A DNA stretch of 56,697 nucleotides. Source: a virus. A model generated the notes under the pieces. It saw only the letters and a list, made by a program, of their open reading frames with translations. It did no database searches and was not told the DNA's origin. The position numbers and the translations under genes were made by a program. The stretch is taken from the UHGV virus genome UHGV-0866312. One strand, given 5' to 3'. Below, one piece after another: positions 4,480 through 56,697 of this stretch (positions within the stretch are counted from its first letter, which is position 1; every line of letters starts with the position of its first letter).

Positions 4480-4559
4480 TTAATTATATGATGGTGTCTA
4501 CTAAATGGTTATATTAGTGGACACTATCAGCATTATAGAGTATGATAGAGGTAGGATTT

Positions 4560-30504: not shown

Positions 30505-30608
30505 TTATTTTGTATTATCTTACAGTAAAATATTTTACCTTTATTAAAAATGTCACAGTATCAAATAAAATGCTTATTTAATAGTAAAGAATGATTGAGG
30601 TGATATTT

Positions 30609-30950
30609 ATGAATAAACTTAATTTATTTTCTTACTATAAGAATGTTGATAATACAGAGGTAAATGGTGTGCTAGTAAATAGTAAACTTTTTGAAAGTGG
30701 TGCTTTAGGTGAGATAGGTGTTAATAATTTTATAGTGCTTTGTTGTATCTATTCATACAAAGATAATTCTAACATTAGCCATATTAGTATTAGGAATATA
30801 GCTAGTTTAACAGGATTTTCAACAACTACAGTACAAAAATGTATTAAAGAGTTAAAAAATTATGGCTATTTCACAGTTAAACAAGTTAAAGAAAAAGGGT
30901 CAAACTTCATACAAAATGTATATGACTTTACTGAATGTAAGGGGGCTTAA
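30609..30950 (+). CDS. winged-helix protein, paralog of the replisome organizer N-terminal domain
   Basis: NSKLFESGALGEIGVNNFIVLCCIYSY...TTTVQKCIKELKNYGYF aligns with 30953 (KDLFESGAIKELGINKFTVLSCIY...PTVIKCIKELENDGYF). Confidence 0.55.
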   Translation: MNKLNLFSYYKNVDNTEVNGVLVNSKLFESGALGEIGVNNFIVLCCIYSYKDNSNISHISIRNIASLTGFSTTTVQKCIKELKNYGYFTVKQVKEKGSNFIQNVYDFTECKGA

Positions 30951-30952
30951 AT

Positions 30953-31678: not shown

Positions 31679-31690
31679 GAGGTGTAGCCT

Positions 31691-32458: not shown

Positions 32459-32469
32459 GGGGTGAATGA

Positions 32470-33723
32470 ATGTTAGAATGTAAATTATTATCAAAAGTAA
32501 TTACAGAGCATTGCTACTTTGAATTGAATAGATACAATGTAGGCTATGGTGATTTTTACACTCAAAAGAAAGCATACAAATTTATAAAGGAATATGTAGC
32601 AGAGTTTAAGCAAGTACCCTCTTATGAGACTGTGGTAGCAGAGTGTGAGGACTTTGACTATATACCAGAGGTAGCAGATAGTATAGGTTATTTATGTAAG
32701 ACCTTAAAGAGTAACAGGGCTAGGAGAGAGGCTTTTGATTTACTACAAAATAAAGCCAGTGACCAATTTAATAAGCTAAAAGGTAATGACTTCATTAACT
32801 GGCTATGTGAGGAAACCCAAAAGATAAAAGATGTAACAGAGGCTACCAGCTATACAGGTAGTAACTGGGCTAAAAATGGTGAGGAAAGAAAGAATAGATA
32901 TGAAGAGGCTAAAAGAGGTGAAAGCATCATAATACCTACACCTTATAACAAGCTAAATAAGGGCTTTGCTGGTGGTATGTATGGTGGTGACTATTTAATG
33001 CTTTTTGCTTTTACTAACAAAGGTAAGTCATGGATATGTTGCCAATTTGGTGTAACTGCATGGACTAATAATTTTGATGTATTACACTACAGCCCAGAGG
33101 AAAACAGGGCAAAGGTAGAAAGTAGATTAGATACAGTATTAGGACATTTCAGTAATACTCATATCAAGAAAGCTGACCTATATAATGAGGATGAATATTT
33201 TGGATATTTAAGTGCTTTCAATGAAAATACACAGCATGACTATTTAATAAAGACAATGGAAGATTTACCAAAAGGGTTAAGCTGTGATGTTATAGAGGCT
33301 GACTTATTAGCACACCCAAATACTAAAATGGTTATAGTGGATGGATTAAACCTTATGAGAGGAATAAGCAATAATAACAGGGATAACATCACATATAACA
33401 GTAGAAGAATAAGACAAATGGCAAATAGGTACAATGTAGTATTTGTAGTATCACATCAAGTCAGTAAGCAAGGAATGAAAGAAAGTGAGTTTACTGATGA
33501 AAGTGGATTAAGAATAGTAAGCCCACCAAAGCTAGACAGCTACAGTGAGGGCATAGCTACAATACAAGACCCTACAGCAGTATTAAGCTATGACTATAGT
33601 GATGGTATTGGTAAATTCCTTGTAGCTAAAAGTAGGGATAACAATAAAGATGATGAGATAGAGTTACAAGTACAGTATGATACTGGATATATTACAGAGG
33701 TAGAGGAATGTGATTTTATCTAA
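32470..33723 (+). CDS. DnaB-like replicative helicase
   Basis: RecA-like domain with TNKGKS Walker A, 417 aa, positioned after the loader. Confidence 0.55.
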   Translation: MLECKLLSKVITEHCYFELNRYNVGYGDFYTQKKAYKFIKEYVAEFKQVPSYETVVAECEDFDYIPEVADSIGYLCKTLKSNRARREAFDLLQNKASDQFNKLKGNDFINWLCEETQKIKDVTEATSYTGSNWAKNGEERKNRYEEAKRGESIIIPTPYNKLNKGFAGGMYGGDYLMLFAFTNKGKSWICCQFGVTAWTNNFDVLHYSPEENRAKVESRLDTVLGHFSNTHIKKADLYNEDEYFGYLSAFNENTQHDYLIKTMEDLPKGLSCDVIEADLLAHPNTKMVIVDGLNLMRGISNNNRDNITYNSRRIRQMANRYNVVFVVSHQVSKQGMKESEFTDESGLRIVSPPKLDSYSEGIATIQDPTAVLSYDYSDGIGKFLVAKSRDNNKDDEIELQVQYDTGYITEVEECDFI

Positions 33724-33852
33724 TAGTAAGGGTGACACAATATTGTCACTCTTTTTCTATGTTTGGGTGTTTGAATATTCAAAAATGTCACAGCATGTAT
33801 GTTACTGAATATAATTATATTAGAAAATTGAAAATAGAAGTGGGGTGGTAAT

Positions 33853-34254
33853 ATGTTAAAGAGTAGCATGTATTTAAGGGCTACAGAGGATATAGAAAAT
33901 TACTATATTGCTAAAACATTTAAAAAGGTTTATGTATCACATCCTTTTCAAAATAAAGTAGAAAATGTGATAGCAATTAAACAAATAATTAAGGATTTAA
34001 CAGTAGGGCATTTAAAGGCTAATGTAAATGACCTTTTATTTATAAGCCCTGTATTACTATTTGGTCATATGTACAATGATACAGATTATGACTATGGCTT
34101 ATGGATGTGCTTAGATATTCTTAAAGACTGTGATTATATCATCATGGCTGGGGAGTGGAGAAAGTCAAGGGGCTGTATGGCTGAATACTATTACTGCAAA
34201 GCAAATAATATACCAATATATTTGCTGGGGGATGTAATTAATGAAAGTGAATAA
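33853..34254 (+). CDS. hypothetical protein, nucleoside 2-deoxyribosyltransferase-like fold (weak)
   Basis: Pattern VYVSHPF...ISPVLLFG...DYIIMAGEW..SRGCMAEYYYC...NIPIY resembles Rossmann-like deoxyribosyltransferase/DUF4406. Confidence 0.3.
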   Translation: MLKSSMYLRATEDIENYYIAKTFKKVYVSHPFQNKVENVIAIKQIIKDLTVGHLKANVNDLLFISPVLLFGHMYNDTDYDYGLWMCLDILKDCDYIIMAGEWRKSRGCMAEYYYCKANNIPIYLLGDVINESE

Positions 34255-35203
34255 TATGGATATTCCAGTAAATGTGCTGGAAGAGTTAGAGCCATATTTT
34301 GACCAGTTACAAAAGTATGTTGTAAGAGGTAATAAACTACAAGCCTGTAGCCCTTTTAGAATTGATAAAAAGCCTAGCTTTGCAGTCAACCTAGATAATG
34401 GCACATTTATTGATAGTGGTAATGATAATCCAGAATACTACAAAGGCAACTTTGTTAAACTACTGGCTTATTTAAGGCAAGAAAGTTATGAGGATGCTTT
34501 ACAGTATTTAATGGATAAATATAATTTAGTGCTACAAGATGTGGATGCATTACACTTACAACTTAATTTACAAGATGATGAAAAGTCTTATAACACTTTT
34601 AACTGGACTACTGACCTAAAGTATTTGCATTTTAGGTCAAAGTATTTAGGTACTAGGGGCATTACAGAAAAAGTGCAAAGGCTTTTTTTTGTGGGCTTTG
34701 ATAGAGAAAAGAAAGCAGTAGCTATGTGCTGGCATGATGTTAATGGACAGATTATTAATGTCAAATTTAGGTCAACTACTGGCAAGCAATTTGCTTATAT
34801 GCCAGATGGTCAGCTAGTTAGAAACCATATATATGGACTATATCAATGTATTAAATATGGCTATAAGGATGTGGCATTAGTTGAGGCTGAAATAGACTGC
34901 ATGTACTTATGGTCAAATGGTATACCAGCCATTGCAGTAGGTCACAGTGGTATCACATCCATACAGTTAAAACTATTACAAAGGTATGTAACAAGTATAA
35001 CCATAGCTAGTGATAATGATGGTGCTGGTAATAGATTTAGAAAACAGCTAAAAGAAATACTACCAAAACACTTTACTACCTATGATATTGACATACCAAA
35101 GGGGTGCAAAGATGTTAATGAGGTATCACCAGAGCAAATAAAGCTAACATTTTCTCAAAGAAAACCAGTGTTATTTGATAATTTAATAAAACTATCATTG
35201 TAA
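34241..35203 (+). CDS. DNA primase (DnaG-like zinc finger + Toprim)
   Basis: CSPFRIDKKPSFAV zinc-finger motif. Toprim motifs VEAEIDCMY and IASDNDGAGN. Confidence 0.75.
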   Translation: MKVNNMDIPVNVLEELEPYFDQLQKYVVRGNKLQACSPFRIDKKPSFAVNLDNGTFIDSGNDNPEYYKGNFVKLLAYLRQESYEDALQYLMDKYNLVLQDVDALHLQLNLQDDEKSYNTFNWTTDLKYLHFRSKYLGTRGITEKVQRLFFVGFDREKKAVAMCWHDVNGQIINVKFRSTTGKQFAYMPDGQLVRNHIYGLYQCIKYGYKDVALVEAEIDCMYLWSNGIPAIAVGHSGITSIQLKLLQRYVTSITIASDNDGAGNRFRKQLKEILPKHFTTYDIDIPKGCKDVNEVSPEQIKLTFSQRKPVLFDNLIKLSL

Positions 35204-35235
35204 TATTACTAAACTACTAAACTTTTCCAAAAGTA

Positions 35236-35264
35236 TTAACATTTAGAAACTATTCTAATATAAT
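35236..35264 (+). promoter_or_regulatory. sigma-A-type promoter TTAACA-N17-TATAAT
   Basis: Direct reading, upstream of 35333. Confidence 0.5.
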
Positions 35265-35332
35265 AATAGTGTAAACAGAATTTACAGAAAATACAAATAA
35301 AATAAAAATATTATGAAAGGATAGAGAGTGTT

Positions 35333-36025
35333 ATGGTAGAAAAATTTACAGAGAGGGTTAATAATATTGCTTATGCATTAGCAACTATGGAGGATAAAGA
35401 AAGCTACTTATATCAAATAAAATGGTCAGACCTTTATGACTTAATTCATGAAAGGGTTTGTAATAGATGTGAGAGGCTTTATAGACACTATTCAATTGAA
35501 TGTAGACTAAATATAGAAAAAGAGGCTTTTGAGGAAATAGGTTTAACAGCAAAAATTAAAGCTGTAAATGGTTATGATATTACAAAAGGTGACTTTATGG
35601 CTAGATTGAATTTAATCATAGACCAACAAGCTAAAACATTAGTAAGGGATGCACAAAGTAATAAGAGGCTTGCAATGACTTATTGTAGCACTTCACTGGA
35701 TGCACCTACCATCCATGCTAAAGATGATGACCTATGCTTAATGGACACTTTACAAGATGAAAGTGCTGATACAGAGGTGTTAGTAATTAGCAAACAAAAT
35801 AACTTATTAAAAGCATTAAAGAATTGGTCATTAATCAATAAAAAGACTTTGAGAGATAGCAGACTAATTTATATCAATATGATAGTAGTAGATAAGGATG
35901 CTAAAAGGGATGCTTTATGTAAGATAACTGCTAAAAACTGGGTGACTACAAGAAAAGCATTATCAAGGGCTAACCAAAACTTTGTAAAGTATTTAAATGA
36001 AAATCAAATAGAAATAGCTGGTTAA
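35333..36025 (+). CDS. hypothetical protein, possible transcription regulator (weak sigma-like features)
   Basis: ORF with its own consensus-like promoter. Similarity is weak. Confidence 0.3.
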   Translation: MVEKFTERVNNIAYALATMEDKESYLYQIKWSDLYDLIHERVCNRCERLYRHYSIECRLNIEKEAFEEIGLTAKIKAVNGYDITKGDFMARLNLIIDQQAKTLVRDAQSNKRLAMTYCSTSLDAPTIHAKDDDLCLMDTLQDESADTEVLVISKQNNLLKALKNWSLINKKTLRDSRLIYINMIVVDKDAKRDALCKITAKNWVTTRKALSRANQNFVKYLNENQIEIAG

Positions 36026-36155
36026 TAAAAATGAGGGTGCTACTTTAAAGCATCCTCTTTTTTTGTCTTTTATATATGTCACAGTAGAAATTAAGTGAGT
36101 ATTTAATACTATGAAAGAGATTTCTGAATTATTAGAAAATAAGGAGTGAATGAAT

Positions 36156-36920
36156 ATGAGTTTAATTCAAAAGAAAGGAAATGAAGTAGCTGAAAGTGTA
36201 AATAAAAAGGATATTGATTTTAAAACAGTCTTTATCAGATTAAAAGATGGTGAGGCTATCAAAGTTAGATTTTTAGGTGTTAGTGATTATGTGGAATATA
36301 AAGCACATTCTAATGGATTTGCTTACAAAGTATATACACAGCCTTGCAGTGAGCCTATTGGTCAAGAATGTCCATTATGCAAAGCTTATAAATATGGATT
36401 ATCAAAATTAGAAAAAGGGCAACCAGCTAAAGAAAGTGAATACTATGATTTAAGACCTAGCAAAAGATATTTAGTAGCTATGGTAGATTTGGAAATGGAT
36501 AGTATCAGAGTGTGGGATTGCAGTAAAACACAATTAAAGAATTTTATTTCTCAATTAGAAGAATATAAGGAAATGATAGAAGAGGGTGAGGAATGTTATT
36601 TCACTTTCAAAAGAACAGGTACAGCCACTAGTACCACTTATACTTTATCACCTATCATGCCTACTGGTAAAAAGAATTTAGCTATCATTGATAAGATTAA
36701 GCCAGTATATGAAAAGTGGGAAGATGAGGTAATAAATGATGATTTCTATGAGGATGTATTACAAGTAAGAAAACCAGAGTTGTTAATTGAAACACTTAAA
36801 ACTGCTGGTTTACCAACAGAAGAAATATTCCCAGAGTATGAGGCTACTTTTGTAAATGAGGATGCTGATGCTGATACTGATGAGGGTGAGCCTATTGATG
36901 ATGGTGATATGCCATTTTAA
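36156..36920 (+). CDS. putative ssDNA-binding protein (Zn-ribbon; acidic C-terminal tail ...DDGDMPF)
   Basis: The C-terminal acidic tail ending in MPF resembles the SSB DDDIPF tail. A CxxxxxxCPLC zinc motif is present. Confidence 0.4.
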   Translation: MSLIQKKGNEVAESVNKKDIDFKTVFIRLKDGEAIKVRFLGVSDYVEYKAHSNGFAYKVYTQPCSEPIGQECPLCKAYKYGLSKLEKGQPAKESEYYDLRPSKRYLVAMVDLEMDSIRVWDCSKTQLKNFISQLEEYKEMIEEGEECYFTFKRTGTATSTTYTLSPIMPTGKKNLAIIDKIKPVYEKWEDEVINDDFYEDVLQVRKPELLIETLKTAGLPTEEIFPEYEATFVNEDADADTDEGEPIDDGDMPF

Positions 36921-37000
36921 TAAAATAAAACATTAAAGGGTGGCTTAAAAAAGTCACTCTTTTTTGTACTTATAAATAGGAAAGAAAGGAGGTAAGGAAT

Positions 37001-37969
37001 ATGGCAAGATTGACCAGTAAAGCAAAAGCACAAAAGGTAGTTAAAGAGGAATTACATGGAATTGAGGACAATAAATATTCTATTGAAATTATAGAGGCAT
37101 TTAATAAATTTCATGCTATGAATATCTATGATGATTATAGTATAGAGCAAGATATTTTATCACAAGATGCCTTAGATATTGAATTGATTAAGACCAGAGA
37201 GCCTAAAGACCCTAACTTAATTTTGTTTAATCCTAGTGGTGCTAGTAAATGCCCTAGAGAGTTATTTTATAAGCTGACAAAAATGGAAGAGGACAAAAGT
37301 GGTAATGTACCATTTCAGAAAAGATGGACTAGAAACAGTACAGCAGTGCATAAAGCAATACAAAGAGATTTACTTTATATGGACAAATATTTAAGTAATT
37401 ATCATTTTAGAGTAGCTAGAGCAGAGGAATTACCTAGCATAGAAATTGACCCTAGCAGATTTACATTACCAGCATGGGAAAACAATATATTGACTACTAA
37501 AATGTTTAGCTATGGTGGCTATACCTTTGCTATTAGGGGCATGATGGATGGTAATTTAATATATAAACCAGAGAAAAAATTAATAGGATTTGAGATTAAA
37601 ACAAAAAGCACTACTATTGCTAGTGTAGGTGATTACAAGTTAAGGACACCTATGGATAGTCATATAGAGCAATGTGTGTGCTATAGCTTGCTATTTAGAG
37701 GTGACCCACTAGATATTAACAGAGTAGATACATTCATTATCTTTTATGAAAGTGTAGCTAAAGACCAGTGGAGCAAGGGCAAGGATGCTAGACCAGACTT
37801 AAAAGCCTTTGAGGTAAATGTAACTTATGAGGATAGAATTAGATTGTTAGACAAATTTGCCACAGTTTGTGAGTATGTAGCAAATGGTGAGATACCTGTA
37901 GGTAACTTTGATAAATGCTTATTCTGTGGATTTAAAAATATTTGTCAAGGAGAGGGGGCAAATGGCTGA
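37001..37969 (+). CDS. PD-(D/E)XK exonuclease, Cas4/RecB-like with Cys cluster
   Basis: D...EIK motif (MMDGNLIYKPEKKLIGFEIKTK). Cys at CPRE plus C-terminal CLFCGFKNIC. Confidence 0.6.
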   Translation: MARLTSKAKAQKVVKEELHGIEDNKYSIEIIEAFNKFHAMNIYDDYSIEQDILSQDALDIELIKTREPKDPNLILFNPSGASKCPRELFYKLTKMEEDKSGNVPFQKRWTRNSTAVHKAIQRDLLYMDKYLSNYHFRVARAEELPSIEIDPSRFTLPAWENNILTTKMFSYGGYTFAIRGMMDGNLIYKPEKKLIGFEIKTKSTTIASVGDYKLRTPMDSHIEQCVCYSLLFRGDPLDINRVDTFIIFYESVAKDQWSKGKDARPDLKAFEVNVTYEDRIRLLDKFATVCEYVANGEIPVGNFDKCLFCGFKNICQGEGANG

Positions 37970-38477
37970 TTATGATTTTTGTATTTTAGCACTGGACTTA
38001 TCTTTAAATTGTAGTGGCTATGCAGTATTACATTATGAGCATGGCTTTGTAGAGATAGTAGAGAAAGGTGTTATTAATAATAAGAAAATACCATCTAGTG
38101 AATGTCCAAAGAAATTGAATGTCATTAGAGATAAAATAGATGATTTATTAAAGACTTACAATACTAAGGCAGTAGCCAAAGAAAGGGGCTTTAGTAATGG
38201 TAATGCTAGGGCTGGACAACAGCTTTACAAAGTGCATGGTGTAGCTGATGAGGTCAGCTTTACACATGGATTTATAGTAGATGAAATAGCTACTACAAGT
38301 ATTAAAAAGAATGTAGGTGGTAATGGTAAGTGTACTAAAGAGGATGTAGAGAATAATTTACCTTACTATGTAGGGAAACAAAAATATAAGACCAATGATG
38401 AAAGTGATGCAGTAGCAGTAGGTTTAACATGGCTAATGCTGAATGGCTTTCATGTGGATATTAGGGAAGTGGCTTAA
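37962..38477 (+). CDS. RuvC-like Holliday junction resolvase
   Basis: N-terminal ILALDLSLNCSGYAVL (RuvC motif I) and an acidic D/E near the C-terminus. GAGGGGG RBS before ATG 37962. Confidence 0.6.
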   Translation: MADYDFCILALDLSLNCSGYAVLHYEHGFVEIVEKGVINNKKIPSSECPKKLNVIRDKIDDLLKTYNTKAVAKERGFSNGNARAGQQLYKVHGVADEVSFTHGFIVDEIATTSIKKNVGGNGKCTKEDVENNLPYYVGKQKYKTNDESDAVAVGLTWLMLNGFHVDIREVA

Positions 38478-41303: not shown

Positions 41304-41903
41304 ATGGCAAATGTGATTAATAACAAAGATAGATTAGCAATATTTGAAAAGGAATTAGGCTTTTACCACAGTAATAATATCAGAGAATTTGCAAAGCTAT
41401 TAGTAGCTGAATTACCTAACTATTTCTTTTTTGTAGCCAGCAGTGCTACAGGTAAATATCACCCAGAATATGCAAATGGTGAGGGTGGCTTAGTAAGACA
41501 TACACAGGCTGGTATGAGAATAGCTAAAAGCTTATTTACTATTAGTGACTTTACTATAGAGGAAGAGGATTTAATTTTATTGGCTTTACAATTTCATGAC
41601 AGCATTAAAAGGGGTAGAGGCATTGACAGTGGACATACAGTGTATTTGCATCCTATCTATGCTAGTAGATTTATTATGCAGTATTACTATGACCATATTG
41701 AAATAACAAAGACACTTATTACTGGTGAGGATTTAGAAATAGTTTGTAGAGCAATACAGAGCCATATGGGGCAATTCAATAAGGATGGTGAGGGTTACCC
41801 TATTCTACCTGTACCAGTTACACCACTACAAAAATTTGTACATGAATGTGATTATTTAGCATCAAGGGCATTTTTAGAGGTGAATTTTAATAAAAATGTG
41901 TAA
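41304..41903 (+). CDS. HD-domain phosphohydrolase
   Basis: H...HD motif (KYHPEY...LQFHDSIKRG). Confidence 0.6.
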   Translation: MANVINNKDRLAIFEKELGFYHSNNIREFAKLLVAELPNYFFFVASSATGKYHPEYANGEGGLVRHTQAGMRIAKSLFTISDFTIEEEDLILLALQFHDSIKRGRGIDSGHTVYLHPIYASRFIMQYYYDHIEITKTLITGEDLEIVCRAIQSHMGQFNKDGEGYPILPVPVTPLQKFVHECDYLASRAFLEVNFNKNV

Positions 41904-42414
41904 TGAAGTGTGGAAAGATATTCCTAACTATGGTGGAGTATATCAAATTAGCAATTTAGGAAGAGTTAGGAGTTTTAAGTATGGTAGAGAGCATATATTA
42001 AAATCTTATATAAATAGTACTGGTTATCTATATGTAACATTAATGAAAGATAATAATAGGCATCAAGTAGCTATACATTATCTATTAGCATATTGTTTTA
42101 TTGTCTTTGTGCCACAAAAAGGTGTTAGATATGCTGTAAACCATAAAGATGAAGTTAAGACAAATAACATTTTGAGTAATTTAGAAATTATAACAGAGGT
42201 AGCAAATTTGAATTATGGAACAGCTAGAGAAAGACAGAGATTATCTGTTAGTAAACCAGTTAAATGTATTGAAACTGGTATTTCTTATAAATCAGCTAAA
42301 GAGGCAGAGAGGCAAACAGGAATATATCAAGGTAATATAAATCAATGTTGTAATGGTAGCCATAGGAGAAAAACTGCTGGTGGTTATCATTGGATATTTA
42401 TAAGTGAGGTGTAG
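41896..42414 (+). CDS. HNH homing endonuclease (paralog of 2633-3151)
   Basis: MCNEVWKDIPNYGGVYQISNLGRVRS; NHKDEVKTNN; a C-terminus about 60% identical to the first HNH. Confidence 0.8.
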   Translation: MCNEVWKDIPNYGGVYQISNLGRVRSFKYGREHILKSYINSTGYLYVTLMKDNNRHQVAIHYLLAYCFIVFVPQKGVRYAVNHKDEVKTNNILSNLEIITEVANLNYGTARERQRLSVSKPVKCIETGISYKSAKEAERQTGIYQGNINQCCNGSHRRKTAGGYHWIFISEV

Positions 42415-43396: not shown

Positions 43397-44080
43397 ATGA
43401 ATAAAATAGAATGTATCAGAGAATTTAGAGAGTGCTTTACTGTAGGTAAAAGCTATGAGGTAAAAGTTAATCATTACTGGGGTGGTGTAACTGTAAAAGA
43501 TGATGATGAGGATTTATATTATATCTGTAATGCTGATTTAGATAAGTATTTCTGTAGTAAGGATAGCTGTAAAGACTGTGATAATTCAACCTGTGACCAT
43601 TACCATGAGCCAGTAAATAACAGCATCCATATGAGAATTAAGTATTTTGATGGTGCTACAAAGTTAAAAAAGATTAGTAAAGGTAATTGGATAGATGTGT
43701 ATGCTAACAAAGATATGATTATCTATGAGGGTGAGAGGGCTATGATACCTTTGGGCTTTGCACTTGAATTACCAGAGGGCTATGAGGGGCATTTAGCACC
43801 TAGAAGTAGCACATTCAAAAGCTGGGGTATTATTCAGACTAATTCAGTAGGTGTGGTAGATGATAGCTATATAGGTGATAATGATGAGTGGCACATGCCT
43901 GTATATTGTTTAGAGGGCAAGGATGCTACAGAGGATGGCTTAATATTCACTGAAATTAAAAAGGGTGACAAAATAGGTCAATTTAGAATTATAGAAGTTA
44001 TGCCAGAGATTACATTAGAAGAGGTGGAGGTGTTTGGTAATGAGGACAGAGGTTCTTTTGGAAGTACTGGAACAAGATAG
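43397..44080 (+). CDS. dut: dUTPase with N-terminal Cys-rich extension
   Basis: dUTPase motifs PRSSTFKSWGI and VGVVDDSYIGDNDEW. The N-terminal ~75 aa carry CxxC...CxDC...C.H.H. Confidence 0.75.
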   Translation: MNKIECIREFRECFTVGKSYEVKVNHYWGGVTVKDDDEDLYYICNADLDKYFCSKDSCKDCDNSTCDHYHEPVNNSIHMRIKYFDGATKLKKISKGNWIDVYANKDMIIYEGERAMIPLGFALELPEGYEGHLAPRSSTFKSWGIIQTNSVGVVDDSYIGDNDEWHMPVYCLEGKDATEDGLIFTEIKKGDKIGQFRIIEVMPEITLEEVEVFGNEDRGSFGSTGTR

Positions 44081-44468
44081 AGGATGCTTTATTCCTCTTG
44101 ATTGCTTAGATGTTAAAGGTGACATCTATTTGATAAATGAATTTGGTGATATTTATTCATTAGTAAGGAATAGGCTGTTATCTAAATGTAGTGACAAAGA
44201 TGGTTATAAATATACCACCTTACAAAATAGTAAAGGAGATAGATGGTGCTATAGAGTGGCTACTCTTGTAGCATTAACATTCATAGGTAAGCCACCAGAT
44301 GATATGATTGACCCTACAATAGACCATATAGACAGTAATAAAGTTAATAACTATTACAAAAATTTAAGATGGATGGAAAGGGGCAAAAATTCATCTATTA
44401 GAAAGAAATTTCCACCTAGAGATAATTTGGGTAGATTTTGCAAAAAGAAAAAGCAATTAATTGAGTAA
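44040..44468 (+). CDS. HNH endonuclease
   Basis: IDHIDSNKVNNYYKNLRWMERGKN HNH motif. GGAGGTG RBS before ATG 44040. Confidence 0.7.
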   Translation: MRTEVLLEVLEQDRGCFIPLDCLDVKGDIYLINEFGDIYSLVRNRLLSKCSDKDGYKYTTLQNSKGDRWCYRVATLVALTFIGKPPDDMIDPTIDHIDSNKVNNYYKNLRWMERGKNSSIRKKFPPRDNLGRFCKKKKQLIE

Positions 44469-46424: not shown

Positions 46425-48749
46425 ATGACAGCATTGAAATTAAATTTAAGTATGGATGCTGATAAGAAGAAAGAGGCTAGAGTAAAAGAGGCTGTAAAAA
46501 AGGTAAAGGCATCAGATTATGAGCCTACATGGTCAGAGGTGTGGAATGGCTACACTAACCCTATTAGTGGCACTGCTAAAAAAGGTATATTCCAGCTTAA
46601 AAATACTGCTAATGATTTAAAGAAATTAAAAGCAGTAAAGAAAGCTATTGAAAGTGAAGAATTAGGCACTAATGTTACTAGCTTAAAGAAATTCAGTAAA
46701 ACACATGCACTAGGCTTATATGCAGTTTTAGTAGAGCAACAAAAAGAGGCTACTATAAAAGAAATGATAGAGAATAAGCCAGATAATTACCACCTAGTAG
46801 ATAATACTGTATCTTTATTTGATATGTGCCAAAAGCTAAATGATGAGGAAATAATAGCACTAGATACAGAGACTACAGGGGTAGAGCATAAAGATGTAAC
46901 AGTAGGTATGTCCTTAACATTACCAAAGGCTGACCAACACTATTATATTCCATATAGACATACTACAGGTGAGAAACAATTAGCACCAGAGATAGTATTT
47001 AAAGCAGTTAAGCCACATTTAGAGAGGCTAGACCTAGTATTACACAATGCTAAATTTGACTATAAAATGTTAATTAAAGATGGCATTGAGTTAAAGAATA
47101 TCAAGGCAGATACTATGGTATTAATGCACATTTTAAATGAGAATGAAATGTCATTAAAATTAAAAGATTTGGCTAATAAATATGGTCACAAATTTGGTTA
47201 TGAGCATCCTAGTATGACTTATGAGGAATTGTTTGGTAATGGTGGCTTTGAGGCTACACCACTTGAAATAGGGCATATCTATGCATGTAAAGATACACAT
47301 TTAACATGGCTATTATATCAATGGCAATTAAGTTATTTAGATAAGATGCCAAAAGTAAAAAGTGTATTCTTTGATATAGAAATGAAACTAATGCCAGTAT
47401 TATTAAAAACTGAATTAAGGGGCTTTGATGTAGACCTAGATTATTCAGAGCAATATAAAAAGCAGTTATCTGGTGAGATAGCTGAAATGGAAAAGAAACT
47501 AGATGAATTTTTCCCAGATATAAACCTAAATAGTAATCAGCAATTAGCTTATTATTTATTTGAGGTAATAGGGCTGGATAGAGTAAAAGGTGACAGTGTA
47601 GATAAAGAGGTATTAAATGTACTAGCTGATGACTATGAGGGTATCAAAGTATTATTAGAGTACAGAAAATTAACAAAATTATTAAGCACCTACATTGAGC
47701 CACTACCTAAAATGGTGTGGGAGGATGGCTTTTTACATGGTGAGTTAAATCAGATAGGTACTAAAACAGGTAGATTAGCAAGTAATAACCCTAACCTACA
47801 AAATATACCCCCACAGGCTAGAAAGATATTTGTAGCACCAAAAGGTAAATTATATATGTCATGTGACTTTAGTAAGATGGAGGTATTTTTAGCATGTGAG
47901 TTAAGTGATGACCCTAACTTATATGAGGCTTTACATGGTGGTCATGATGTGTATAGTGTGCTGGCATCAAAGTCATATCACTTACCTATAGAGCAATGTG
48001 GTGATGGTACTATTTACAGAAAGCACAGTAAAACAGCATTACTAGGATGTATGTATGGTGCTTTACCTTTTACTATAGCTAAACAAGTAAATGTATCTGT
48101 AGAAGAGGGAGAGGAAATTTTAAATAGCTTTTTTGATGGTAACCCAGTCTTAACACAGTCTATCCATAATTGTCATGACCTTGTAGCTAAACAAGGATAT
48201 GTAGAGACTATTACAGGTAGAAAAAGAAGATTTCCAGAGATACCAAAGCTATGCAAGCTGTTAGATAAAATCAATAGAGAAATTAAGAGAATGACAGGTA
48301 AGACTGGTGATGAGTGGTGTAAGGAATATAACAGCATATTCCAGATACCTAAAAAGCTACCTTATGAGGTTAAGCAACAATATCACAGCACTAATAAAAC
48401 TATCCAGAAAGCCTTTAGACAGTCATTTAATGCTACTGTACAAGGCAGTGGTGGTGATATATGCAAGATTGCTTTAATAAACTTGCAAAACTACTTTGAT
48501 GAGTTAAATAAGGACTTACCAGAGTGGAAACACTATCATATTATTTCATCTATTCATGATGAGCAGTTAATGGAAGTACCAGAGGATATACCAGCAGAGG
48601 TAATAAAGCAAATTGATTACATCATGTGTAACACTATGCCTTTAAAGGTGCATATGAAAACAGATATAGAGTTTTATAAAAGATACTACCATGATGGTAA
48701 ATCTATAGCACAGGTATTAGCTGGTGACCTACCAAAAGCTGACCTTTAA
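46425..48749 (+). CDS. family A DNA polymerase with 3'-5' exonuclease domain
   Basis: Exo I ALDTETTG. Motif A CDFSKMEV, motif B RKHSKTALLGCMYG, motif C SIHDE. Confidence 0.9.
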   Translation: MTALKLNLSMDADKKKEARVKEAVKKVKASDYEPTWSEVWNGYTNPISGTAKKGIFQLKNTANDLKKLKAVKKAIESEELGTNVTSLKKFSKTHALGLYAVLVEQQKEATIKEMIENKPDNYHLVDNTVSLFDMCQKLNDEEIIALDTETTGVEHKDVTVGMSLTLPKADQHYYIPYRHTTGEKQLAPEIVFKAVKPHLERLDLVLHNAKFDYKMLIKDGIELKNIKADTMVLMHILNENEMSLKLKDLANKYGHKFGYEHPSMTYEELFGNGGFEATPLEIGHIYACKDTHLTWLLYQWQLSYLDKMPKVKSVFFDIEMKLMPVLLKTELRGFDVDLDYSEQYKKQLSGEIAEMEKKLDEFFPDINLNSNQQLAYYLFEVIGLDRVKGDSVDKEVLNVLADDYEGIKVLLEYRKLTKLLSTYIEPLPKMVWEDGFLHGELNQIGTKTGRLASNNPNLQNIPPQARKIFVAPKGKLYMSCDFSKMEVFLACELSDDPNLYEALHGGHDVYSVLASKSYHLPIEQCGDGTIYRKHSKTALLGCMYGALPFTIAKQVNVSVEEGEEILNSFFDGNPVLTQSIHNCHDLVAKQGYVETITGRKRRFPEIPKLCKLLDKINREIKRMTGKTGDEWCKEYNSIFQIPKKLPYEVKQQYHSTNKTIQKAFRQSFNATVQGSGGDICKIALINLQNYFDELNKDLPEWKHYHIISSIHDEQLMEVPEDIPAEVIKQIDYIMCNTMPLKVHMKTDIEFYKRYYHDGKSIAQVLAGDLPKADL

Positions 48750-48799
48750 TGTCACAAATAATACCCCCTAGAGTATTTATTACCACAGGGGGTGTGCAT

Positions 48800-49141
48800 G
48801 TGAGTTATGAAAAAGTAATGTCAATGACAATTTATCAAGGGATTAAACAAAATATAGCTAGTGGATGCTGGTATATAGATATAGATAAAGGCATTGTAAT
48901 GAACAGTAAAAGAATGAAACCAATAACAGCAGTAAATAGCAGTGGCTACTATGTCATAAGGGGTGCTGATAAGGTGCTGTATTATATGCACCAGATTATA
49001 GCTGTAGCTGGTGGCTTAAATCCAGTAGGGTATCAAGTAGACCACAAGAATAGAAATAGGCTAGATAACAGATTTGATAATTTAAGATGTGCCACACCAG
49101 CAGAGAATTTAGCTAATAGAGGTGGTATGTATGAAATGTGA
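48800..49141 (+). CDS. HNH endonuclease (probable GTG start; listed ORF starts inside the GTCACA element)
   Basis: VDHKNRNRLDNRFDNLRCATPAENLANRG HNH motif. Confidence 0.65.
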   Translation: MSYEKVMSMTIYQGIKQNIASGCWYIDIDKGIVMNSKRMKPITAVNSSGYYVIRGADKVLYYMHQIIAVAGGLNPVGYQVDHKNRNRLDNRFDNLRCATPAENLANRGGMYEM

Positions 49142-51395: not shown

Positions 51396-51719
51396 ATGTT
51401 TATGGATTATAACAGCTATGACATTAATGATATATACAGAGCCTTAAAGTGCAAAGATGCTTATAAGGGTATAGCTGGTGCTACTGGTGATTATACTTTC
51501 AGTGATATTGTCATGGATGCAGAAACCATTATAAAAGAGGCTAACTTAACTGAAAGACAAAGACTAGTAATTAAGCTTTACCATGAGGATGATTTAACAT
51601 TAGCTACTATTGGTGAAATGCTAGGCATCACACATCAAGCAGTTAAAGACTGTTTAAATCAAGCTAGTAAAAAGATTAATAAAGTATTGGAGGGGTGGAA
51701 AGATGGCAGTACAATATAG
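51396..51719 (+). CDS. sigma-70 region 4-containing transcription regulator (ArpU/RinA-like late activator candidate)
   Basis: ERQRLVIKLYHEDDLTLATIGEMLGITHQAVKDCLNQASKKI is a classic sigma70 r4 HTH. Confidence 0.55.
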   Translation: MFMDYNSYDINDIYRALKCKDAYKGIAGATGDYTFSDIVMDAETIIKEANLTERQRLVIKLYHEDDLTLATIGEMLGITHQAVKDCLNQASKKINKVLEGWKDGSTI

Positions 51720-52919: not shown

Positions 52920-53141
52920 TACAGAGGTACATGAGGTAGGTAAGCCAAATGTAAAAGAGTTAATTAAAAGGGTGCTAGAATTAATCTAGTGCCTTTTTTG
53001 TTGCCTATTTATCAAGGTTAGAGTAGTATACTAATAGATACCCCTACTTTATAAGGTGTTATGAATAGCATCTTATTTAGTGGGAGTGTCACAGAAACCT
53101 ATTACTGTGGGTATTTCCCTACTAGAAAGGATGTTTTTTGT

Positions 53142-54602
53142 ATGAGAAAAAAGTTATTACTTTATGCCAGAAAATCTAGGATTAAAAAGAATGAAATGTC
53201 ACTAGAGGCACAAGTAGAATTACTAATTAAATACTGTAATGACCATGACTATGACTATGTTATTTACAGTGAAGAGGGTAGTAGTGAAAACTGGGAAAGA
53301 CCAGAATTTCAGAAAATGATGGAAGAGGGTAAAAAAGGTATTTATGATGGTGTACTGGTAACAGTCACAGACAGAATAAGCAGAAAAGGACTAGTATGGT
53401 ATAGCTTTGTTGAGTATTGTTTAGACTATGGCTTATTATTATTCACACTAGATAAGATTTATGACTTTACTAATGATGATGATATTTTAGTTACTGGTAT
53501 TCAGTCAGAAATGAATAGTTTGTTTATGAGGGTCACAAAGAAGAAATTAAAAAGAGGGGTAGAGTTAGCTGTACAAAAAGGTATCTATATGGGTACTGTA
53601 CCTTTTGGATATACCAAAGATAAAAGCAAGCATCTTATACCAGACCCAGAGACAGCACCAGCAGTAAATATTATATTCAAAAAGTTTTTAGAGGGTTATA
53701 ATCAAGTACAGATAGCAGAATATTTGAATAACAGAGGTTATAAAACAATTGATGGTAATATCTTTACTAATGTAGCTGTAAGAGATATTTTAATGAATAT
53801 CACATATACTGGTAGCATCCTATGGAATGGCATTTTTGTTGCTGATGCACACCCAGCCTTAATAGATACAGAAACCTATAATAAGGTTAAAGCTATCAAG
53901 GATAAACAGAAAGCACCAGCAGAGTATAAAAAAGCTAAATACCCTTTGACTGGGCTTTTAAAATGCCATGAATGTGGTCAGACATTATCACTTAAAAGAG
54001 ATACTAAGAATAAGAAAGTATATGTTTCTAACTGTCTTAGGAGTGCTGTGTCTAGGAGTGAGGCAAAATTAAATAAAATCAAATGCACTACTAAGGGCTG
54101 TGATATGGCTAGATTATTACCTATAGTTTATGATGCCCTTAGAAAGCATATGATTAGTATAGATGAACAGATAGAGGCTGTATTATCAGATACTAACATG
54201 CTAATTGATGAAATAGCAACAGAAATGGAACAGCTAGAGCATAGAAAGGCTGAATTAATTAAACAAAAGCAAAGAATACAAAAGGGCTTTATTGCTGGCA
54301 TCTTATCAGAGGATGAGGCAAAGGAAGAAAAGAAAGACTGTGAAATACAGATAAATTCTGTAGATAATGAAATATTAATCTTAAAGAATAAAGATGTAAA
54401 AGGTGAGGTAAGCAAGCTAGAAAAAGTTAAACTGACAATAGAACAGCTTTTAACAGGGAATTTAAAGAATGAGGACAGCAATAGACTGTTAAAGAGTATT
54501 ATAGACCACATAGACTTTAAAAAGACTGAAAGAGACATTTACAACCATAAAGACCCAGATAAAAGGTATGCACCTGTAAAATTAACAATTCACTATAAGT
54601 AA
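53142..54602 (+). CDS. large serine recombinase (integrase family)
   Basis: N-terminal LLYARKSR...SLEAQ catalytic Ser region, recombinase domain, Cys-rich zinc module CHECGQ...C and a coiled-coil C-terminus. A GTCACA element at 53088 suggests the start at ATG 53142. Confidence 0.75.
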   Translation: MRKKLLLYARKSRIKKNEMSLEAQVELLIKYCNDHDYDYVIYSEEGSSENWERPEFQKMMEEGKKGIYDGVLVTVTDRISRKGLVWYSFVEYCLDYGLLLFTLDKIYDFTNDDDILVTGIQSEMNSLFMRVTKKKLKRGVELAVQKGIYMGTVPFGYTKDKSKHLIPDPETAPAVNIIFKKFLEGYNQVQIAEYLNNRGYKTIDGNIFTNVAVRDILMNITYTGSILWNGIFVADAHPALIDTETYNKVKAIKDKQKAPAEYKKAKYPLTGLLKCHECGQTLSLKRDTKNKKVYVSNCLRSAVSRSEAKLNKIKCTTKGCDMARLLPIVYDALRKHMISIDEQIEAVLSDTNMLIDEIATEMEQLEHRKAELIKQKQRIQKGFIAGILSEDEAKEEKKDCEIQINSVDNEILILKNKDVKGEVSKLEKVKLTIEQLLTGNLKNEDSNRLLKSIIDHIDFKKTERDIYNHKDPDKRYAPVKLTIHYK

Positions 54603-54654
54603 GAGTAATAGAGGTTATCAGCTATTAAGCTGGTAGCCTCTTCTTTTTATTATT

Positions 54655-54790
54655 TTGTCCACTTTATTTTAATACCTTTTAGTGGACAGAAACATAAATA
54701 AGGTGTATACTATAAATATAGTAAGAAATAAATTTTTTTCCTACTTTGTCCACTAAACTAGTCACACTTTAGTAGACAGATGCATATAAT
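54655..54790 (+). promoter_or_regulatory. operator/promoter region 1: dyads GTCCACT-N17-AGTGGAC and GTCCACTAAA-cta-GTCACA-c-TTTAGTAGAC; GTCACA-N18-TATAAT
   Basis: Direct reading. The 10-bp dyad arms flank GTCACA, with a perfect TATAAT at 54785-54790. Confidence 0.6.
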
Positions 54791-54824
54791 AAAGTATAAA
54801 GATTAAGAGAAAGGAATGATTTAA

Positions 54825-55076
54825 ATGACAATCACAATGACAAAGGAAAGCTACAAAAAAGAGGGTAAGAAATGGATGCTAACAGCTACAGAAACTAAGG
54901 AGATAACAGAAACACAATATCACAGCATTATAGATGCTAAACACTTCTTTACTAACTTAGGAGGATATGAAAGACACACTAAAAGCTATACAAGTGCTGG
55001 CTACCTAGTAACTAAGATAAACAGCATATCACCAGATAAGGAAAATAAATCAGTTTATCAATTTAATATCAAATAA
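54825..55076 (+). CDS. hypothetical small protein
   Basis: ORF with an AAAGGAATG RBS, downstream of operator/promoter 1. Confidence 0.45.
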   Translation: MTITMTKESYKKEGKKWMLTATETKEITETQYHSIIDAKHFFTNLGGYERHTKSYTSAGYLVTKINSISPDKENKSVYQFNIK

Positions 55077-55081
55077 TACAA

Positions 55082-55106
55082 GGGGGCTGATTTTTTAGCC
55101 CCTTTT
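55082..55106 (+). terminator. rho-independent terminator
   Basis: gggggctgattttttagcccc followed by tttt. Confidence 0.6.
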
Positions 55107-55198
55107 GTCCACTAAATTATTTTTAGGGATTTAGGAAACATTTAATAGATTACTGCATATAATATAGTATAAAGACAAAGAGGAAAGGAATGGTAAAT

Positions 55199-55414
55199 AT
55201 GAAAACAACAAAGAAAGAATACAAAGAGGAAATAAGGACAATGACAAAGATGATATTTAATAGTAAGAATACAGAGGCAGTAGAGCAACTAAATAAAGCA
55301 TATAGCAGTAATTTAGATGGTAGATTATTCATTCATAGCAAAGCTACATTAGGACAGCTAGAAAGCTTATATGAGGCTGTAGTAAATCTAGTAAGTGATT
55401 ACAGAATAGCATAA
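55199..55414 (+). CDS. hypothetical small protein
   Basis: ORF downstream of a TTGTCCACTAAA half-operator and a TATAAT. Confidence 0.4.
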   Translation: MKTTKKEYKEEIRTMTKMIFNSKNTEAVEQLNKAYSSNLDGRLFIHSKATLGQLESLYEAVVNLVSDYRIA

Positions 55415-55456
55415 CAGAAAGGGGCTGATAAAAGCCCCAGTACATATTTTATAAAA

Positions 55457-55501
55457 TTGTCCACTAAAATAGTCACAATTTAGTAGACACCTACATATAA
55501 T
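55457..55501 (+). promoter_or_regulatory. operator/promoter region 3: GTCCACTAAA-ata-GTCACA-a-TTTAGTAGAC; GTCACA-N18-TATAAT
   Basis: Direct reading. The dyad has one mismatch. Confidence 0.6.
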
Positions 55502-55556
55502 ATATTATAAAGATTAAAAAGTCATGGCAGACTATAAAAGCTGAAAGGGTTTAAAT

Positions 55557-55922
55557 ATGGCAGTAAAGGTAAGTGATAATTTTAAGGGCATTATAGAAAA
55601 GACATATAATATTCTAGTTAATTATTGTGGTGTACAAAGAGTACCAGTTAAATACAGTAGGGCATTAAGCTACTGTGGATGCTGTGACCTAGAGGCAGAT
55701 GATGAAAATGGAGAAAGCTACCATCCTTTATGTATCAGAATAAGCTACAAGATACATGACAAAGGTGATGACCTTAATAGATGGTCACAGAATGATATAG
55801 ATGACCTTATAGACACTGTATGTCATGAGGTAGCACATTTTTATTACTGGAAACACAATTCAGCACATAAAGAATTAACAGAGGAATATAAGGACATAGT
55901 TAAAAACTGCTGGGCTGATTAA
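55557..55922 (+). CDS. putative Zn-metallopeptidase (HExxH; SprT/ImmA-like)
   Basis: Motif CHEVAHFYYWKH plus an upstream Cys cluster YCGCCD. Confidence 0.4.
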   Translation: MAVKVSDNFKGIIEKTYNILVNYCGVQRVPVKYSRALSYCGCCDLEADDENGESYHPLCIRISYKIHDKGDDLNRWSQNDIDDLIDTVCHEVAHFYYWKHNSAHKELTEEYKDIVKNCWAD

Positions 55923-55962
55923 CAGCCCTTTACATACACATAAAAACTAAAGGGGTGATAAG

Positions 55963-56208
55963 GTGAGTAAAAAGAAAAAGACAGCACCAGCAGTCATAGC
56001 AGATAATGAGCCACCATTAATAGTAAAGACTAAATGCAGAATGATGTATATAGATGTTAAAAGTGATATTCTTTTTGCTGATGACCATGTATATTATTAC
56101 AGCTATATAAATGGTAAATATAGAGTGTATGAGCATAAGCCAGACAGCAATAATAACAGCAAGTATGCAGAATTAGACTATAAGCATTTTCTAATATATT
56201 TCAAGTAA
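55963..56208 (+). CDS. small basic protein (GTG start)
   Basis: AAAGGGG RBS then GTG. Lysine-rich N-terminus. Confidence 0.4.
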   Translation: MSKKKKTAPAVIADNEPPLIVKTKCRMMYIDVKSDILFADDHVYYYSYINGKYRVYEHKPDSNNNSKYAELDYKHFLIYFK

Positions 56209-56223: not shown

Positions 56224-56260
56224 AGGTAATTACAGCTAACTAACTGTAGTTACCTTTTTT
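56224..56260 (+). terminator. rho-independent terminator
   Basis: aggtaattacagctaactaactgtagttacc followed by tttttt. Confidence 0.6.
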
Positions 56261-56261
56261 G

Positions 56262-56690
56262 CTGTTATTTCAGATAATGGCTACTGGTAATTAATGATTA
56301 ATGACAGTAAGACTTGCATTAATAAATAGGCTTTAAGCTATTAAGTAGCAAGGTAAATTTAAAGGTATTTGCAGTAGGTAATAAAAGGCTGTAAAGGCTG
56401 ATATATCAATGCTTTGGGGCAGTCTCATTAACAGATAATAATGTCAGATAATTAGCTTATATTTGTCTTTTAATAACTGGTAATAGGGCATAATTAATGC
56501 TATAAATAGCTGATAATTTACAGATAATTAAGCAGTTAAAATAGAATAATGTTACTGATAATTAAGCAGATATTGTAGCAGATAATGTATAGATAATAGG
56601 CTGTAATAGCAGATAATGTAGCCTATAGATAGCTTATAATAAGCTGATAGATAACTGATAATAAGCTGATAATTAACTGTAAATATTCCC
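56262..56690. repeat. iteron-like array: at least 13 copies of C(A/T)GATAAT in about 430 bp
   Basis: Copies include cagataatgg, cagataataatg, cagataattag, ctgataattta, cagataattaag, ctgataattaag, cagataatgtat, agataatagg, cagataatgtag, ctgatagataa, ctgataataag, ctgataattaac. Confidence 0.65.
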
Positions 56691-56697
56691 TTGCACC

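Follow-up and report, generated by a model that had tools for sequence, protein, structure and literature searches.

Morons are autonomous promoter-gene-terminator units of lambdoid and HK97-like phages, to which the host-takeover module of SPO1 is comparable, and the C1 operators of phage P1 and the stoperators of mycobacteriophages L5 and Bxb1 are asymmetric and occur at 14-30 or more sites. The outer motifs bound by Tn3 resolvase lie on either side of a central segment (PMC3084882), resolvase binding at res autoregulates the promoters inside res (PMC7157771), and passenger genes beside the res sites of Tn3 and gamma-delta may share that control (PMC7157771, PMC3084882). Resolvase autoregulation and moron cassettes are already known kinds, and the locus described here varies on them. 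It lies in the virus genome UHGV-0866312, a phage genome of 33% G+C with every gene on the + strand, which we analysed as one stretch of 56,697 nt (the window). Inverted-repeat sites, here called dyads, lie upstream of small genes that follow the gene for a large serine recombinase, and again before an operon containing the gene for a small serine recombinase. The best overall explanation, drawn from sequence comparison and given a probability of about 0.55, is that the dyads form a dispersed operator regulon on portable promoter cassettes, with the small recombinase as the most likely ligand.

The sites of this family, established by reading the sequence and listed without strand, are as follows.

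54657-54687, dyad D0, GTCCACTTTA-N11-TTTAGTGGAC, equal to GTCCACT-N17-AGTGGAC
54748-54777, dyad P1, GTCCACTAAA-CTA-GTCACA-C-TTTAGTAGAC (N10), GTCACA being central
55107-55139, degenerate dyad P2, GTCCACTAAA-N13-TTTAGGAAAC, the partner TTTAGGAAAC lying at 55130-55139
55459-55488, dyad P3, GTCCACTAAA-ATA-GTCACA-A-TTTAGTAGAC (N10), GTCACA being central
4496-4522, dyad of the same family remote from the cassettes, GTCTACTAAA-N7-ATTAGTGGAC, before the operon of the amylase-like, small serine recombinase and terL genes
469-496, degenerate site of the same family, GTCCATTATA-N8-TTTTAGGAAAC, just 3' of the terS-like gene

The operator half-site reads TTGTC(C/T)ACTAAA and a whole dyad measures about 26-33 bp, with the arm spacing varying from N6 to N13 and the dyad centres differing from site to site. 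D0 falls within a longer imperfect palindrome of 53 bp (54646-54698). GTCCACTAAA occurs in five exact copies in the 56.7-kb window, none of them outside 54678-55468. A search for inverted pairs, allowing at most 3 mismatches per 20 nt and gaps of 3-16 nt, gave four in the window, compared with a mean of 0.02 and a maximum of 1 in 200 Markov-1 simulations; the fourth of these pairs was that at 4496-4522, beyond the cassette region. D0 and P1 are 91 bp apart, the remaining sites are spaced by about 350 bp, and the site at 4496 stands single, its arms showing the same asymmetry as those of P1 and P3 but in inverted orientation. An earlier interpretation made from the letters alone, here called the sequence-only reading, had placed three dyads in this region, and these were found at the positions given, with the half-site that it put at 55108 starting at 55107. 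The GTCACA-N18-TATAAT that it saw within two dyads is present at 54761-54790 and 55472-55501, and small open reading frames (ORFs) do lie downstream of the sites, at 54825, 55190/55199 and 55557. An alternative in which the dyads act as RNA structures was discarded: their hairpins are weak (-7 to -12 kcal/mol), lack a U-tract and lie 5' of the -10 boxes. Rfam had no match anywhere in the window. Scans with the exact full-dyad patterns gave no match in IMG/VR and none in GTDB genomes, a single match in JGI metagenomes lay inside a DnaE-like ORF and was set aside as a chance match, and the locus had no blastn match among GenBank phages.

The dyads coincide with predicted promoters of the sigma-A (sigma-70) type, having -35-like and -10-like hexamers 16-18 nt apart 5' of genes. 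These are consensus matches, and the whole scan was unenriched for them (24 found against 24.5 expected in shuffles).

54683-54711 (+), candidate promoter P0, TGGACA-N17-TATACT, its -35 hexamer being the proximal arm of D0
54761-54800 (+), two interleaved promoter candidates at P1, GTCACA-N18-TATAAT (54761-54790) and TAGACA-N16-TATAAA (54773-54800)
55135-55163 (+), promoter candidate at P2, GAAACA-N17-TATAAT
55472-55511 (+), two interleaved promoter candidates at P3, GTCACA-N18-TATAAT (55472-55501) and TAGACA-N16-TATAAA (55484-55511)
4518-4546, candidate promoter at the 4496 dyad, TGGACA-N17-TATGAT
Relative L008, candidate promoter at a site with N7 spacing, GAGACA, spacer 17, TATAAA
Relatives L022 and L025, candidate promoters TAGACA, spacer 16, TATAAT

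The proximal arm generally ends in T[A/G]GACA, matching TTGACA at 5/6 positions, and lies 16-17 nt 5' of a -10 hexamer that itself matches at 5-6 of 6 positions (D0, P1, P2, P3, 4496, the L008 N7 site, L020, L022 and L025), and for the distal arm there is no -10 box to pair with on either strand. Since the proximal arm is itself a near-consensus -35 and the distal arm its inverted copy, each dyad reads as a -35 element plus an inverted copy upstream, which is the geometry of an operator. The dyad symmetry exceeds chance and overlaps the -35 region, and in this respect the sequence-only reading, which had proposed operators overlapping promoters, was borne out. A protein on both arms would cover about -20 to -49, including the -35 hexamer(s), which makes a repressor operator the most probable role of the dyad, as predicted from its position.

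The same could not be said of the GTCACA-N18-TATAAT motif, which had been taken for a local switch element. There are 32 copies of GTCACA on the + strand of the window versus 7 on the - strand, and about 18 of the + strand copies are intergenic, usually straight after the T-tract of a terminator and 18 nt before a TATAWT box.

1153, 3535, 9400, 14505, 30360, 30552, 33787 and 36078, members of the GTCACA promoter family
38506, 41239, 43334, 45053, 48751, 50442, 52457 and 53088, further members of the same family

GTCACA-N18-TATAAT is the standard genome-wide promoter scaffold of this phage, so it is no local switch element; only the flanking GTCCAC arms are specific to the locus. An invariant GTCACA box is odd for plain sigma-A promoters. 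In eight members of the family the spacer holds another dyad of 16 bp, ATACC-N6-GGTAT, located 3 nt past GTCACA; this hints at a second regulator or at a polymerase specificity peculiar to the phage. Just 5' of the GTCACA promoter of the large recombinase gene there is also an arm-like single sequence, TTTAGTGGGA (53076-53093), which agrees with the proximal arm at 8/10 positions and has the opposite orientation to the arm found in the same place at P1 and P3.

The dyads are conserved in relatives. In L008 and L021, with recombinases 93-98% identical, the P1 and 4496 sites are identical to those of the window; L008 also keeps the arms of D0, with a spacer one base shorter, and P2, at 1375-1407, there driving the gene of an HExxH protein. 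L020 (recombinase 78% identical) has GTCCACCAAA-N6-TATAATGGAC upstream of the small recombinase gene; at the same place L022 and L023, which come from human and pig gut metagenomes and whose recombinases are 69% identical, show GTCTACTAGA-N12-ATTAGTAGAC around a central TTGTCACA. In an alignment of the region upstream of the recombinase gene, with recombinases 62-78% identical, the proximal arm was the best-conserved non-coding block. The distal arm is kept at 9-10 of 10 positions in independent sites having spacers of N6, N7, N10, N11 and N12 and differing promoter contexts, a conservation beyond the needs of a promoter that is seen in L008, L021, L020 and L022/L023. A counterpart of the site at 469-496 follows terS in L020 (GTCTTGAAAT...AAAGTGGAC), left-arm sites follow terS in L024 and L025, and in L022 such a site is found further downstream, at the end of the next gene. 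In L022 (6474-6520) and L023 (6664-6720), 3-4 direct repeats of a 22-bp unit, AGTTACCATTCAGTAGACAC, lie immediately 5' of terS, the half-site thereby occurring as an iteron. A lack of dyad conservation in related phages would have counted against the sequence-only reading, but sites were found in L008, L021, L020 and L022-L025. It had also tied them to an integrase-type recombinase; there are relatives that retain the half-sites yet encode no large serine recombinase within 10 kb, and this link is therefore incidental.

In more distant relatives (L003, L011, L012 and L013, terS 41-46% identical) GTCYAC sites are absent, and a 16-bp palindrome, TTACAGTATACTGTAA, with the variant TTACAYATATGTGTAA in L013, occurs instead. 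It occupies the same two places: it is found on promoters of the small cassettes that follow the large recombinase gene, and directly 5' of the small recombinase gene preceding terL. L035-L060 form a third clade, prophages of cultured isolates, in which the 160 nt upstream of the recombinase gene hold three dyad-like sites built from GTCC[TG] half-sites (e.g. L035 5840-5990); these overlap a TTTACA-N17-TATTAT promoter in a res-like arrangement.

The genes downstream of the dyads, together with the large recombinase gene that precedes them, are arranged as follows.

53142-54602 (+), large serine recombinase, Pfam Resolvase, Recombinase and Zn_ribbon_recom, PHROG 95 integrase with E 7e-90
54610-54641 (+), terminator of the large recombinase gene, 14-bp stem and T-tract, -21.8 kcal/mol, z -6.1
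54825-55076 (+), cassette gene 1, 83 aa, PHROG 16226 with E 7e-17
55080-55105 (+), terminator of the 83-aa gene, -17 kcal/mol, z -3.9, followed by TTTTGT
55199-55414 (+), cassette gene 2, 71 aa (74 aa from the start at 55190), no family match in Pfam or PHROG
55421-55438 (+), hairpin 3' of the 71-aa gene, -13 kcal/mol without U-tract, a weak terminator at best
55557-55922 (+), cassette gene 3, predicted minimal zincin of 121 aa, HExxH-x5-H-x3-H
55912-55928, hairpin in or after the HExxH gene, without U-tract
55963-56208 (+), 81-aa gene, no family match, kept in L008
56215-56266 (+), strong terminator closing the cassette array, -21.9 kcal/mol with T-tract

The 81-aa gene is probably co-transcribed with the zincin gene. 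The window order is thus D0 and P1 before the 83-aa gene, P2 before the 71-aa gene and P3 before the zincin and 81-aa genes. In L008 the 71-aa homolog comes directly 3' of the large recombinase gene behind a different dyad, GTCCACTAAA-N7-TTTAGGAGAC, followed by D0 and P1 with the 83-aa gene, and then by a promoter joining the upstream half of P2 to the downstream half of P3 before the zincin and 81-aa genes. The junction within this chimeric zincin promoter falls in the shared -10 sequence CATATAATATA and not at the dyad centre. Starting at the terminator T-tract, the block of D0, P1 and the 83-aa gene is near-identical in the window and L008. That the cassettes are mobile is in this sense established, and since their order differs in so close a relative, they behave like morons. 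We consider them moron-like units that, as judged from these junctions, move by recombination between common promoter sequences; each has its own promoter and its own terminator, the latter weak after the 71-aa and zincin genes, and a position that varies among close relatives. The sequence-only reading had described small autonomous genes, the last encoding an HExxH protein, each insulated by a terminator. The genes are indeed cassettes of that kind, and the insulation is found after the large recombinase, 83-aa and 81-aa genes (hairpin with U-tract) and fails for the 71-aa and HExxH genes, whose hairpins lack a U-tract.

The 3.3-kb L008 contig spans the end of the large recombinase gene, the cassettes with a zincin 88% identical to that of the window, a repeat-rich non-coding region and terS. 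The end of the window therefore joins its start, which puts the cassette array between the large recombinase gene and pac/terS on a circular or permuted map. With regards to cassette content, the 83-aa protein shares 46% identity with ORF18 of Vibrio phage ICP1, and L013 cassettes encode HicA/HicB. The relatives of the 83-aa protein are ICP1 and its kin, in 69 Vibrio phage records, a very distant host jump. The large recombinase likely starts at the Met at 53142, within a longer ORF from 53061, and its 93% identical homolog P0001 also has 486 aa; close relatives of it sought in IMG/VR were not found. The 53-bp palindrome at D0 seems unlikely to be an attP site for this enzyme, as in integrated homologs the junction lies 5' of the recombinase gene and D0 moves with the 83-aa cassette in L008.

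The HExxH protein is, by its sequence and predicted structure, a minimal zincin of the SprT/WLM/minigluzincin type. H90, E91, H94, H100 and H104 are invariant in 25 family members, the third His lying six residues past HExxH. The Pfam SprT-like match of the protein itself has an E-value of 2.4e-4 and 21.4 bits, which is below the curated cut-off of 25.6. Among the 25 homologs, 13 match WLM, 12 match SprT-like, 6 match YgjP-like and none match Peptidase_M78, with homolog-set matches to WLM, SprT and YgjP reaching E 2e-5. An AlphaFold2 model (pLDDT 92.9) gave Foldseek matches to selecase, abylysin, jannalysin and Wss1 at probabilities of 0.87-0.99, with a TM score of only 0.43-0.53. The ImmA/IrrE-type protease suggested by the sequence-only reading was rejected on these grounds: Peptidase_M78 matches were 0/25 and an IrrE-like fold was missing among the PDB matches, with profiles pointing to WLM, SprT and YgjP and the fold to minigluzincins and Wss1. 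The neighbouring genes encode the 71-aa and 81-aa proteins without family match, with no XRE-type partner adjacent. Close relatives of the zincin sought in IMG/VR were not found, and an exact look-up of its sequence gave no record.

Besides the large recombinase (53142-54602), three further gene products are candidates for the protein that would bind the dyads.

34-450 (+), terS-like protein with a helix-turn-helix (HTH)
5440-6030 (+), small serine recombinase of the resolvase/invertase type, Pfam Resolvase with E 1e-34, C-terminal HTH
51396-51719 (+), sigma-70 region-4-only protein of 107 aa, Pfam Sigma70_r4 with E 3e-11, PHROG sigma factor

The small recombinase is, tentatively and at somewhat less than even odds, the best candidate, as judged from its sequence and by analogy. 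It has both catalytic motifs, YxRxS and DRLSRS, and matches the Gin, gamma-delta and Tn3 resolvases in the PDB. We found 841 homologs at E<=1e-20, one variant occurring in 392 contigs including human and pig gut metagenomes, and in this very large family the gene lies immediately 5' of terL and portal. Among GenBank (INPHARED) phages, tblastn found no homolog in a comparable genome and gave only two matches of 43% identity, in short Listeria phage records. As in res-type sites, inverted motifs surround a central segment with site lengths of 26-33 bp (architecture per PMC3084882), and in L020 and L022-L025 the site lies directly 5' of the recombinase gene, on its promoter; in the window and L021 the amylase-like gene lies between the two. 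The recognition helix of the enzyme also varies with the site type, being S[KR]S[AST]ISK with GTCYAC, SKATL[YF]RK with TTACAG, and SRTVLYERAK with the GTCC[TG] sites arranged like res. A variable arm spacing of N6-N13 fits, by analogy, a protein with flexibly tethered DNA-binding domains. The terS-like HTH and the sigma region-4-only protein, taken together, are a somewhat less likely ligand than the recombinase, and the remainder of the probability falls to some other protein or to none.

Several observations weigh against the recombinase-bound regulon. The terS-like HTH has a helix that follows the half-site type equally well, so that covariation does not discriminate between the two proteins, and for both it may merely reflect phylogeny. 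A typical resolvase dimer would need a longer site than the 16-bp palindrome that the distant clade carries, and the 22-bp direct iterons TTCAGTAGAC by terS in L022/L023 suit a TerS-type binder. The window recombinase operon is preceded by one site, with the amylase-like gene intervening, and not by a three-subsite res; three adjacent subsites (I, II and III) were not found, the site at 4496 being single and the others 91 or about 350 bp apart. In L024 and L025 (recombinases 62-63% identical) only the proximal arm is present upstream of the small recombinase gene, the distal arm being absent, and L022 has only the left arm at 7504; conservation of a -35 element is a simple explanation of such single-arm relatives. 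At P1 and P3 either of the interleaved promoters may fire. Finally, the half-site TGTCCACTA fits TGTCYNNTA, the putative gamma-delta/Tn3 consensus, which a literature search did not confirm.

With the dispersed regulon as the preferred explanation, the locus would consist of autonomous units of promoter, gene and terminator, arrayed between the large recombinase gene and pac/terS on a circularly permuted phage genome some 57 kb long. Every cassette promoter would combine the generic phage scaffold with a lineage-specific operator, the proximal arm serving as the -35 hexamer and the distal inverted copy having no promoter role, and a phage-encoded protein on both arms (-20 to -49) would block RNA polymerase. 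With the same operator on the promoter of the amylase-like, small recombinase and terminase genes and a degenerate copy after terS, this would constitute a small dispersed regulon, in which the small recombinase would repress in the manner of Tn3/gamma-delta resolvase, at promoters embedded in its own binding sites. Protein binding, repression and the identity of the protein are here what we infer from the DNA and protein sequences. A bolder version, which we consider possible but doubtful, is that a resolvase-type small recombinase has been co-opted as master regulator of a dispersed operator regulon in widespread 50-60 kb phages of anaerobic and gut Firmicutes. The half-site doubling as a -35 would then make a portable promoter-operator module that captures morons, toxin-antitoxin pairs and a mini-zincin, with the accessory genes tied to the packaging operon and shuffled via shared promoter sequences.

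Four other explanations were weighed, of which a late-gene or packaging-region element read by the sigma region-4-only protein or the terS-like HTH ranks highest, although we consider it unlikely. The half-site includes a hexamer resembling a -35, which a free region-4 domain could bind so as either to recruit polymerase or to compete with it; TerS could bind in pac recognition and autoregulation. The end of the half-site, T[AG]GACA, is the kind of sequence that sigma region 4 reads, the sigma-like gene precedes the late region closely in a conserved gene order, none of the sites falls outside the pac/terS-to-terL neighbourhood, and both the iterons directly 5' of terS in L022/L023 (22-bp spacing) and the covarying terS-like helix would suit TerS. 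However, a dyad centre at about -34 to -46, over the -35 hexamer, is unusual for an activator, and the repeats by terS in the window are CAGATAAT/CTGATAAT and not GTCCAC. It is less likely again that the dyads are chiefly substrates of a serine recombinase, that is, crossover or accessory sites for circularisation, multimer resolution, or inversion and shuffling between 55488 and 4496. Phage P1 has its loxP close to pac, and here the presumed pac region is no more than a few kb from the sites; the genome encodes two serine recombinases, the arms at 4496 are inverted relative to P1 and P3, the cassette order differs between close relatives, and inverted half-sites totalling 26-33 bp resemble serine recombinase sites (PMC3084882). 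The only mapped junction, that of the L008 zincin promoter, nevertheless falls in CATATAATATA and not at the dyad centre, the centres are unconserved among sites, and the sites are placed precisely relative to the -10 box, which recombination would not need.

The sequence-only reading had favoured a lysogeny, immunity or early-gene switch, which we took to mean a CI-like prophage repressor acting on three operators beside an integrase gene, and this we regard as improbable, slightly more so than the recombination substrates. What remains of it is that the operators lie on promoters and are conserved; a large serine recombinase is present, the operator sequence differs by lineage as immunity specificities do, and a small integrated element (L004-L006) pairs homologs of the recombinase with an adjacent XRE repressor. 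What argues against it is that no CI/XRE/Cro-type gene was found in about 50 scanned ORFs, covering the regulatory, replication and terS-terL genes with most structural genes (about 9.7-29 kb) outside the scan, that all genes are co-directional, as the sequence-only reading had itself remarked, that the promoter scaffold is genome-wide and the packaging operon part of the regulon, and that relatives have the same half-sites with no large recombinase nearby. The genome is otherwise lytic-looking, with its own PolA, primase, helicase and NrdDG. The least probable alternative is that there is no dedicated ligand, the symmetry being a by-product of duplication and recombination of promoter modules and the conserved arm simply a -35 element. 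The proximal arm is indeed a near-consensus -35 hexamer, some relatives keep that arm only, and the cassettes are clearly duplication-derived, but the distal arm would not then be expected to stay at 9-10/10 across sites with different spacers and promoter contexts, nor the unrelated palindrome of the distant clade to be equally symmetric at the same locations.

The remaining features of the genome that were annotated are given below.

2624-3151, 41896-42414, 44034-44468 and 48749-49141 (+), four HNH endonuclease genes of the homing-endonuclease type
4542-5438 (+), alpha-amylase-like protein of about 290 aa, Pfam alpha-amylase catalytic domain with E 2e-11
6066 (+), terL
7842 (+), portal, with the structural genes next
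30591-38000 (+), DnaD-like, DnaC, DnaB, primase and SSB, followed by NrdG/NrdD
46425 (+), PolA
50824 (+), dNMP kinase

The amylase-like gene is found between the operator-promoter and the recombinase gene also in L021, L022, L023 and L025, and is unexpected in a packaging operon; a free-standing DNA-ligase N-terminal domain (Nlig-Ia) is encoded at 3120-3503. The gene order of dNMP kinase, sigma and a 150-aa protein is common to the window and Paenibacillus phage Halcyone. The phages closest by terL, Clostridium phage FA70 and Halcyone, lack this locus. The coding-strand composition is strongly skewed (A 37.7%, T 29.5%, G 20.5%, C 12.3%). A 2.7-kb element in L004-L006 contains nothing but a homolog of the large recombinase (39% identity) and a divergent XRE-type HTH gene; it splits a radical-SAM (YfkAB-like) gene in Bacillales-like contigs and is a minimal integrative element or a prophage remnant.

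Repeats were also seen in the window. The non-coding sequence 5' of terS (56260-56697 and 1-33) holds dense C(A/T)GATAAT repeats, with 11 copies of GATAAT in 438 nt, all on the + strand and with 11-bp spacing in 56641-56684; the region is kept in L008 and is a candidate pac site or origin. GATAAT is also the Fur-box hexamer. In the 790-nt non-coding stretch 3' of terS, positions 540-700 hold a G-rich tract, GGGTGGGGGCTAGGGGG, followed by tandem repeats of the GTGAGGTATCA type, and L020 has the same layout after terS with another repeat unit, CAGAGGGCTAACA, in 5 copies, possibly iterons. A repeat of about 120 nt is found at 953-1086 and 30401-30521, with a 40-nt identical core, AGGTAAAAATATTGACCTAAAGATAATAACTATATATAAC, containing TTGACC-N17-TATAAC. 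Its copies precede both big gene blocks, from 1240 onward and the replication module from 30591 onward, and may be true host-type early promoters or an origin element.

If the regulon proposed here is true, the regulatory logic of a large, metagenome-abundant phage family would be defined, with a serine recombinase as the transcription factor for accessory cassettes and a packaging operon, and a compact, transferable promoter-operator part for low-GC anaerobes would be at hand. Even if the model fails, the locus offers a clean and testable case of moron cassettes that carry operators.

In comparison with known systems, the zincin shares with SprT, Wss1 (WLM) and the minigluzincins the HExxH-x5-H motif, a length of about 110-120 aa and the predicted fold, differing from them in a sequence match below the curated Pfam cut-off and a TM score of about 0.5. 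The region resembles that of lambda CI/Cro in having palindromic operators over the -35 region, but there is no divergent repressor/cro pair in the scanned ORFs and no clustered tripartite OR, and the genes run in one direction. Like the P1 C1 and L5/Bxb1 regulons, one short recognition sequence is reused at separated promoters, although here as 5-6 dyads of variable spacing and with no repressor gene pinpointed in the scanned ORFs. As with morons and the SPO1 module, each small gene has a promoter of its own and, in most cases, a terminator too, gene content and order differ between close relatives, and the position is at a genome or prophage end; unlike those, the window cassettes share one operator with the packaging operon and would therefore be co-regulated rather than independent. 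The res sites of Tn3 and gamma-delta differ from those described here in context, this being a phage and not a transposon, in being one compact three-subsite unit where the window sites are dispersed over at least five promoters, and in that an arm here doubles as the -35 hexamer with binding being predicted. The two nevertheless have in common inverted half-sites around a central segment of variable length, sites located on promoters, including that of the operon of the recombinase itself, and a small recombinase that is a clear homolog of the gamma-delta and Tn3 resolvases and of Gin.

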